The notes below the pieces were generated by a model. That model was not told where the DNA came from. It did not search any database and worked only from the letters and a program-made list of their open reading frames with translations. From Escherichia coli (GTDB lineage: Bacteria > Pseudomonadota > Gammaproteobacteria > Enterobacterales > Enterobacteriaceae): a stretch of 64,000 nt of DNA. Position numbers and translations under genes: made by a program. Below are positions 55,243-56,875 of the stretch, one piece after another (position 1 is the first letter of the stretch; every line of letters starts with the position of its first letter). The stretch is from NCBI RefSeq assembly GCF_048403405.1, contig NZ_CP183129.1; one strand, given 5' to 3'.

Positions 55243-56067
55243 ATGAACAAAACCGCGATTGCGCTACTGGCCCTGCTTGCCAGTAGCGCCAGCCTGGCAG
55301 CGACGCCGTGGCAAAAAATAACCCAACCTGTGCCGGGTAGCGCACAATCGATAGGCAGTTTTTCTAATGGCTGTATCGTCGGCGCTGACACGCTGCCGAT
55401 ACAGTCCGAACATTATCAGGTCATGCGTACCGATCAGCGCCGCTATTTCGGACACCCGGATCTGGTGATGTTTATCCAGCGTCTGAGTAGCCAGGTGAGC
55501 AATCTGGGCTTGGGCACGGTGCTGATTGGCGATATGGGGATGCCTGCTGGTGGTCGTTTCAACGGCGGTCACGCCAGCCACCAGACCGGACTGGATGTTG
55601 ATATCTTCCTGCAACTGCCAAAAACACGCTGGACCTCCGCGCAGCTCTTGCGCCCGCAAGCGTTAGATTTAGTTTCCCGCGACGGTAAACACGTTGTCCC
55701 GACGCTGTGGAAGCCGGAAATTTTCAGCTTGATCAAACTCGCCGCCCAGGACAAAGACGTCACGCGCATTTTTGTTAATCCGGCGATTAAACAACAACTT
55801 TGCCTTGATGCGGGCACCGATCGCGACTGGTTGCGCAAAGTGCGACCCTGGTTCCAGCATCGCGCGCATATGCATGTACGATTACGTTGTCCTGCCGATA
55901 GTCTGGAGTGTGAAGATCAACCTTTACCGCCACCGGGCGATGGTTGCGGGGCAGAACTGCAAAGCTGGTTTGAACCTCCAAAACCGGGAACAACAAAGCC
56001 TGAGAAGAAGACACCGCCTCCGTTGCCGCCTTCCTGCCAGGCGCTACTGGATGAGCACGTGATCTAA
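55243..56067 (+). CDS. mepA: Penicillin-insensitive murein endopeptidase MepA (274 aa)
   Basis: Signal peptide; recognised MepA sequence with HxH metal motif ([10 protein letters not shown]). Confidence 0.85.
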
Positions 56068-56131
56068 TGGAAACGTTTAATAGCCTGTTTATGGTTTCCC
56101 CGCTGTTGCTGGGAGTTCTCTTTTTGTCGCC

Positions 56132-56875
56132 ATGCTGGCGGGATTTATCGACTCGATTGCCGGTGGCGGTGGGTTACTCACCATTCCGGCATTGATGGCA
56201 GCGGGGATGTCTCCCGCTAATGCGCTGGCAACCAATAAACTGCAAGCCTGCGGCGGCTCTATTTCCGCCACTATCTACTTTATTCGCCGCAAAGTGGTTA
56301 GTTTAAGCGATCAGAAACTCAATATTGCCATGACCTTTGTCGGCTCAATGAGCGGCGCACTGTTGGTACAGTACGTTCAGGCTGATGTCTTACGGCAGAT
56401 TTTGCCCATTCTGGTGATTTGTATCGGCCTCTATTTCTTGCTGATGCCAAAGCTGGGTGAAGAAGATCGCCAGCGCCGGATGTACGGTTTACCCTTCGCG
56501 TTAATTGCCGGTGGCTGCGTCGGTTTTTATGACGGATTCTTTGGTCCGGCAGCCGGATCGTTTTACGCGCTGGCCTTTGTTACGCTGTGCGGATTCAACC
56601 TCGCCAAAGCCACGGCTCACGCCAAATTACTCAACGCAACGTCAAATATCGGCGGTTTACTGCTGTTTATTCTCGGTGGCAAAGTGATTTGGGCGACAGG
56701 ATTCGTGATGCTGGTGGGGCAGTTCCTCGGCGCGCGCATGGGTTCACGACTGGTGTTGAGCAAAGGACAAAAGCTGATCCGCCCGATGATTGTTATTGTC
56801 TCAGCGGTGATGAGTGCCAAATTACTTTACGATAGCCACGGACAGGAGATCCTCCACTGGTTGGGGATGAACTAA
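56132..56875 (+). CDS. yfcA: TSUP-family membrane transporter YfcA, apparently N-terminally truncated or frameshifted (247 aa as read)
   Basis: Longest in-frame ORF starts at 56132; the expected start (ATG at 56067 overlapping the mepA stop, [10 protein letters not shown]...) is in another frame. Confidence 0.7.
   Translation: MLAGFIDSIAGGGGLLTIPALMAAGMSPANALATNKLQACGGSISATIYFIRRKVVSLSDQKLNIAMTFVGSMSGALLVQYVQADVLRQILPILVICIGLYFLLMPKLGEEDRQRRMYGLPFALIAGGCVGFYDGFFGPAAGSFYALAFVTLCGFNLAKATAHAKLLNATSNIGGLLLFILGGKVIWATGFVMLVGQFLGARMGSRLVLSKGQKLIRPMIVIVSAVMSAKLLYDSHGQEILHWLGMN

Follow-up and report, generated by a model that had tools for sequence, protein, structure and literature searches.

A frameshifted yfcA in an Escherichia coli chromosome is probably a recurrent homopolymer undercall

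The gene yfcA is interrupted in the stretch of Escherichia coli DNA analysed here (64,000 nucleotides of contig NZ_CP183129.1, hereafter the window) by the shortening of a run of six T residues (T6) to five (T5). We consider it likely that this T5 is a site-specific homopolymer undercall, a T6 read as T5 during long-read sequencing or polishing. If so, the organism's DNA would have the sixth T, its absence would be a fault that sequencing or polishing introduced into the assembly, the site CTCTTTTTTGTC would be systematically prone to undercalling, and the real gene would be an ordinary, intact yfcA encoding 269 amino acids. We favour this reading because T5 is absent from ~3,300 older genomes, occurs in ~2% of recent ones and is demonstrably artefactual in some of them.

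Organization of the yfcA locus

The features of the locus are as follows.

54151..55239: aroC, a member of the conserved E. coli cluster that also contains mepA, yfcA and epmC
55243..56067, plus strand: mepA, penicillin-insensitive murein endopeptidase, intact (open reading frame list; RefSeq annotation of syntenic loci)
56067..56875, plus strand: yfcA, whole locus, 809 nt against 810, in two open reading frames
56067..56195, plus strand: 5' fragment of yfcA, 42 codons and a stop (translation; alignment with T6 genomes)
56121..56125, plus strand: T5 homopolymer in yfcA, lesion or miscall, flanked by C at 56120 and G at 56126
56132..56875, plus strand: 3' part of yfcA, a 247-aa open reading frame from an internal Met that is Met23 of the 269-aa protein
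56875..57423, plus strand: epmC, EF-P hydroxylase, intact, its start overlapping the yfcA stop (TAATG)

The order aroC–mepA–yfcA–epmC–yfcL is preserved together with its overlapping stop and start codons, and the TAATG at 56067 combines the TAA stop of mepA with the ATG of yfcA. Codons 1–19 encode authentic YfcA; beyond the T run the reading continues out of frame as LSPCWRDLSTRLPVAVGYSPFRH and stops at 56193–56195, while the −1 frame, beginning with the ATG at 56132, encodes the remainder of YfcA without interruption up to 56875. In place of a single uninterrupted frame of 269 codons, the window has open reading frames of 42 and 247 codons. In other genomes the identical T5 arrangement is annotated by PGAP/RefSeq as a frameshifted yfcA pseudogene, and an exact look-up of the 42-aa out-of-frame peptide retrieved no gene called anywhere with that product.

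A preliminary description of this DNA had proposed an apparent −1 frameshift at a T5 run in the 5' end of yfcA. The run is indeed one base shorter than T6, and translation bears out both the start overlapping the mepA stop, with termination after 42 codons, and the opening of the main YfcA frame at the internal Met at 56132 (247 aa). The prediction that a sixth T would restore a continuous, K-12-like protein of 269 aa also holds, T6 being present in MG1655 and in the six nearest relatives. The coordinates needed correction: the T5 run is real but lies at 56121..56125 and not within 56110..56120, and the 5' open reading frame, stop included, ends at 56195 and not at 56194. Chance is not at issue in this comparison: T5 is deterministically one base short of the form present in ~99% of 5,425 complete genomes.

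Family assignment of YfcA

The reference gene in MG1655 (b2327) has 810 nt, T6 and a product of 269 aa. With the sixth T restored, the 269-aa protein encoded in the window matches the Pfam TauE profile (PF01925) over residues 18–253 with 166.5 bits (cut-off 32.6), and the full protein matches the NCBIfam equivalog model NF007909 (PRK10621) over residues 4–269 with 529 bits (cut-off 383). The truncated 247-aa product also exceeds both cut-offs, with 163.2 bits for TauE (profile positions 6–237; cut-off 32.6) and 502 bits for NF007909 (profile positions 20–266; cut-off 383). Intact yfcA is an ordinary gene for a membrane transporter of the TauE/SafE family, located in the aroC–mepA–yfcA–epmC cluster.

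Comparison with the nearest relatives

The six nearest chromosomes (MS 69-1, TUM1226, OX030728, TUM14771, 4621 and GN02461) were compared with the window over positions 35026..63743 (28.7 kb), an interval containing ~39 runs of at least 6 nt, the two shortened runs included. The window differs from all six relatives at only three private sites, namely a G7 shortened to G6 (38948–38953), a C to T substitution at 51323 and the T6 to T5 change in yfcA, where all six relatives have T6. Two of the three private differences are therefore one-base homopolymer deletions, each a single-base change in run length against otherwise identical relatives. Among the six relatives themselves there are five SNPs and one 6-bp repeat-unit indel and no homopolymer indels; the contrast (2/3 vs 0/6) yields p = 0.08 in Fisher's exact test and is only suggestive.

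The one other private indel of the window is the following.

38948..38953, plus strand: G6 run, intergenic, downstream of fadL and upstream of a yfdF-like gene; G7 in the six relatives

An 80-mer carrying the G6 form has exact matches in five other, unrelated genomes (PCN033, SCU-102, 19KM1776, 7CC and GMF054), some of them older records, and none of the five has T5 in yfcA. This intergenic run may be naturally polymorphic. As a co-occurrence test for T5 it proved uninformative, T5 being absent from all five G6 genomes.

The chromosomal part of the window contains no broken gene other than yfcA, and its prophage part, for which relatives are only ~95–96% identical, contains no uncompensated single-base indel inside a coding sequence. 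With no signs of error elsewhere, the window does not come from an error-dense assembly, and a sequence that is clean apart from yfcA is typical of the genomes that carry T5.

Loss of yfcA by another route is documented close by. In GN02461 an independent TAC to TAG nonsense mutation, at the equivalent of window position 56278 (position 21479 of the GN02461 locus), interrupts the gene, which is annotated with an internal stop; genuine loss of yfcA therefore occurs in this lineage.

Two further differences in the compared interval concern other genes. The private substitution at 51323 replaces Pro99 with Ser in a 174-aa Yfc-type fimbrial subunit (51029..51553), and this exact variant is absent from the protein collection. 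At 38127..38132 a 6-bp TCAATA repeat-unit indel lies in the yfdF-like hypothetical gene, where TUM14771 and GN02461 differ from the window and from the other relatives by in-frame tandem-repeat variation.

Distribution of the T5 allele among complete genomes

An 80-nt query spanning the T run matched 5,425 of 5,426 complete E. coli genomes. The T5 80-mer identical to that of the window was found in 43 of the 5,425 (RefSeq) and nearly all the others are one base longer; T6 with an intact 269-aa yfcA characterizes K-12 and ~99% of the set. A T7 run was found in none of the 5,425 complete genomes. The comparison with other yfcA alleles, which the preliminary description had suggested as a check, thus places the window in a small minority.

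The members of that minority are all recent deposits. All 43 T5 genomes have accessions at or above CP127297, or of the CM142xxx or CM181xxx series, and were deposited from ~2023 onward in ~14 submitter batches. Comparably recent accessions make up 23 of 59 T6 genomes (39%) in a systematic sample; if T5 were a natural polymorphism, the probability that 14 independent batches would all be recent by chance is 0.39^14, or ~2 × 10^-6. The allele occurs in 0 of ~3,300 older complete genomes and in ~2% of recently deposited assemblies. The T5 genomes do not form a clade but belong to unrelated lineages, with chromosomes of 4.5–5.6 Mb from chicken, cattle, human and wastewater sources, and include a record of the K-12 strain C600. 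T5 hence recurs in unrelated assemblies that cluster by batch and era and not by lineage, which argues against both phase variation and an inherited pseudogene allele.

Within 40 kb, yfcA is the sole frameshifted gene in four of five sampled T5 RefSeq genomes, and in the fifth yfcU is frameshifted as well. Generally poor assembly was considered as an explanation and rejected, since it predicts many frameshifts near yfcA and almost none were found in these five genomes. That yfcA stands alone in four of the five indicates instead that the miscall is a site-specific hot spot.

The K-12 C600 record and folC

Over 40 kb, the K-12 C600 record (CM181231.1) differs from MG1655 at exactly two positions, both one-base homopolymer deletions: T6 to T5 in yfcA, and A5 to A4 in folC (position 33577 of the C600 locus). 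The gene folC is essential in E. coli, and the folC deletion in C600 therefore cannot be real. An 80-mer with the folC A4 run occurs in three of the 5,425 genomes (C600, B1.H1.18 and B1.H1.1), and all three also have T5. The hypergeometric probability of this overlap is ~5 × 10^-7, or ~6 × 10^-5 with the two B1.H1 isolates counted as one.

RefSeq retains the folC change, annotated as a frameshifted pseudogene, in three 'complete' genomes (CM181231.1, CP146564.1 and CP146571.1); it is almost certainly an assembly fault.

Assemblies outside RefSeq and metagenomes

Collection blocks that index the truncated 247-aa product number 791 for the protein allele of the window, and 87 and 45 for two rarer ones. 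Thirty loci encoding this product were readable, of which 27 have T5; the other three are one each with T4, with T7, and with T6 plus a different one-base deletion upstream. The T4 locus has ten deletions in 3.1 kb, and the T7 case is a draft assembly. In many of the 30 non-RefSeq loci aroC, mepA or mnmC is fragmented within 3–7 kb. One-base deletions recur in public assemblies of long-read type at an A6 run of aroC (window 54742..54747) and an A6 run of mepA (window 55313..55318), breaking both genes; both runs are intact in the window. It is biologically implausible that independent isolates would repeatedly acquire aroC frameshifts. Thus T5 coincides with biologically impossible frameshifts in other assemblies (folC; aroC, mepA and mnmC), not in the window.

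Three Logan per-run contigs (runs DRR424514, SRR18681690 and DRR317775) carry T5 as the only indel in 3.1 kb; a literature search retrieved no paper mentioning these runs and none describing a frameshifted yfcA in E. coli. When metagenome contigs were scanned with a pattern that fits T5 as well as T6, 82 loci matched, and T6 was present in all 80 that were checked, many of them on contigs with names of the SPAdes NODE/cov style; a sample of this size has little power against an allele at 0.8%.

Removal of one base from the A6 and A7 runs of aroC was tried as a control for the background rate and gave no clean value, the identity bands being confounded by polymorphic flanks. The A7-minus-one form had no exact match in the genome search, and APEC37, one of the T5 genomes, appears to carry the A6-minus-one form.

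The context AAAAAAGAG is common to the yfcA site, in reverse complement (ACAAAAAAGAGAAC), and to the aroC site at which deletions recur (TGAAAAAAGAGGGC); it may be a motif prone to error, and the window has a third AAAAAAGAG site at 50960.

Origin of the T5 run and alternative explanations

Among the alternatives raised by the preliminary description, a sequencing homopolymer error is the best supported, given the recent, batched deposits, the folC deletion in C600 and the dense frameshifts in assemblies outside RefSeq. Systematic errors left uncorrected in nanopore assemblies are mainly homopolymer indels, which shift reading frames and inflate pseudogene counts, and at the affected loci the correct allele can be in the minority among the reads (PMC8011154; PMC12903679). 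The yfcA case resembles the homopolymer errors of long-read data (ONT/PacBio) in its one-base homopolymer deletion, its recurrence at the same site in batches, its bias towards deletion and the co-occurring folC and aroC frameshifts. It departs from them in that the run is short (6 nt) and in that yfcA is mostly the sole frameshift in 40 kb, a strongly site-specific pattern and not generic noise. We infer a long-read origin of T5 in the 43 RefSeq assemblies from their era of deposit, batch structure and co-occurring errors, and the pattern in these other assemblies suggests that the T5 of the window belongs to the same class.

A real event, that is a recent, strain-private slipped-strand deletion that changed T6 to T5 and inactivated yfcA, is a rather unlikely explanation of the window. 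Translation would then end after 42 codons, leaving little or no functional transporter, and epmC might suffer some polarity. The T5 is present in the sequence and private among six near-identical relatives, the window has no other sign of poor assembly, and natural frameshifts arise most often by slippage at short homopolymers. The nonsense mutation of GN02461 indicates that natural loss of yfcA occurs, T5 is the sole indel in three Logan contigs, and the intergenic G6, shared with five other genomes including older ones, is possibly natural. A one-base deletion in the T6 run of a dispensable gene, labelled 'frameshifted' by PGAP as in the 43 RefSeq genomes, is also what slipped-strand pseudogenes look like; a real allele, however, should be inherited clonally and be independent of deposit year and technology, and T5 is neither. 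Its natural frequency appears to be very low (0 in ~3,300 older genomes and 0 of 80 metagenome contigs), whereas it reaches ~2% of recent assemblies, across unrelated lineages and in submitter batches, and at least three of the records also have the essential gene folC frameshifted. These rates make an artefact about five to ten times likelier than a real event, and the only other private indel of the window is likewise a one-base homopolymer deletion. The pseudogenizing or phase-variable frameshift named in the preliminary description is accordingly retained in part: a genuine deletion is possible but less likely, and phase variation finds no footing in a tract of 5–6 nt with no T7 among complete genomes and T6 in 80 of 80 metagenome contigs. 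A broader version, in which the T6 run is a genuine mutational hot spot where independent real deletions repeatedly disable the transporter across diverse lineages, is very unlikely. It would make the strain of the window a natural null mutant, perhaps with polarity on epmC; selection, within the host or on laboratory passage, could be the cause, and the apparent confinement of T5 to recent assemblies would be in part a coincidence or a product of recent sampling.

Least credible of all is a functional arrangement, whether by initiation at the internal start at 56132, by −1 ribosomal frameshifting or transcriptional slippage, or by phase variation of the T tract. The 247-aa open reading frame does score well above threshold (163 bits for TauE, 502 bits for the YfcA equivalog), and length variants T4, T5 and T7 occur in public assemblies. 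The internal start is nevertheless at odds with reference proteins of 269 aa, with an equivalog model that spans residues 4–269 and whose positions 1–19 the internal-start product would lose, and with a first hydrophobic segment at about residues 6–28 (Kyte–Doolittle), most of which a start at Met23 would remove; the closest GGAG has its 3' end 16 nt before the ATG at 56132, too distant to serve as a Shine–Dalgarno sequence. The suggestion that this start is used is thus not borne out, and the possibility that reference YfcA proteins themselves begin at the internal Met does not apply. Recoding would share with programmed −1 frameshifting (E. coli dnaX, IS transposases) that a −1 shift at a T-rich site restores full length; yfcA lacks, however, an in-frame slippery heptamer, an exceptional structure and a conserved two-frame organization. 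Frame 0 reads CTC TTT TTG (C-TTT-TTG), which contains no X-XXY-YYZ heptamer, the 80 nt that follow the site have a folding energy of −30.6 kcal/mol (z = −1.32; 22 of 200 shuffles fold at least as well), and the orthologs have a single frame, as seen in the equivalog model and in ~99% of E. coli genomes. Five T residues are also much shorter than the runs usually tied to efficient transcriptional slippage. With phase-variable contingency genes yfcA shares the position of its mononucleotide tract, close to the 5' end of a gene for a membrane protein, and the dependence of the reading frame on tract length; in Neisseria, Haemophilus and Campylobacter such tracts typically have ~8 nt or more. The yfcA tract is far shorter (5–6 nt) and shows no bidirectional variation and none among accurately sequenced relatives, T7 being absent from the 5,425 genomes and the 43 T5 cases all recent; outside RefSeq, the one T4 run belongs to the locus already noted for its ten deletions and the only T7 run to a draft assembly. 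Internal initiation, recoding and phase variation are not supported.

Implications for genome annotation

The finding is an ordinary one whether T5 is an artefact or a real deletion. For biology little is at stake, at most one strain without a non-essential transporter of unknown substrate and, were the frameshift real, an epmC exposed to polarity through its start overlapping the yfcA stop. For annotation the consequences are wider: the T6 run of yfcA is an apparent recurrent miscall site that yields a 'frameshifted yfcA pseudogene' in at least 43 RefSeq complete genomes and in many public assemblies, with companion miscall sites in aroC, mepA and folC. Studies of the pan-genome, of pseudogene numbers or of gene loss that take such annotations as given would be led to a convergent loss of yfcA, which probably did not take place. 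In E. coli assemblies, this site could also be used as a rapid indicator that homopolymer errors have been left unpolished.

Other features of the window

Positions 1..35025 of the window are a P22-like prophage at tRNA-Arg(CCU) (argW), the boundary being marked by the tRNA-Arg gene at 35033..35107 on the minus strand. The prophage includes an intS-type integrase (~33714..34907), tRNA-Asn (12971..13045) and tRNA-Thr (13051..13126), and even its best matches among complete E. coli genomes reach only ~95–96% identity. Its 692-aa open reading frame at 31491..33569, a probable tailspike, is absent from the protein collection, and the gp16-like protein has matches only in three unrelated Logan runs. 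At the other end, positions 63744..64000 depart from the six relatives a few codons into pdxB, after GTGAAAATCCTTGTTGATGAAAA; the DNA beyond this point is annotated as 'type VI secretion system-associated protein TagO' in 235 complete genomes, marking an island junction that the MS 69-1 clade lacks.
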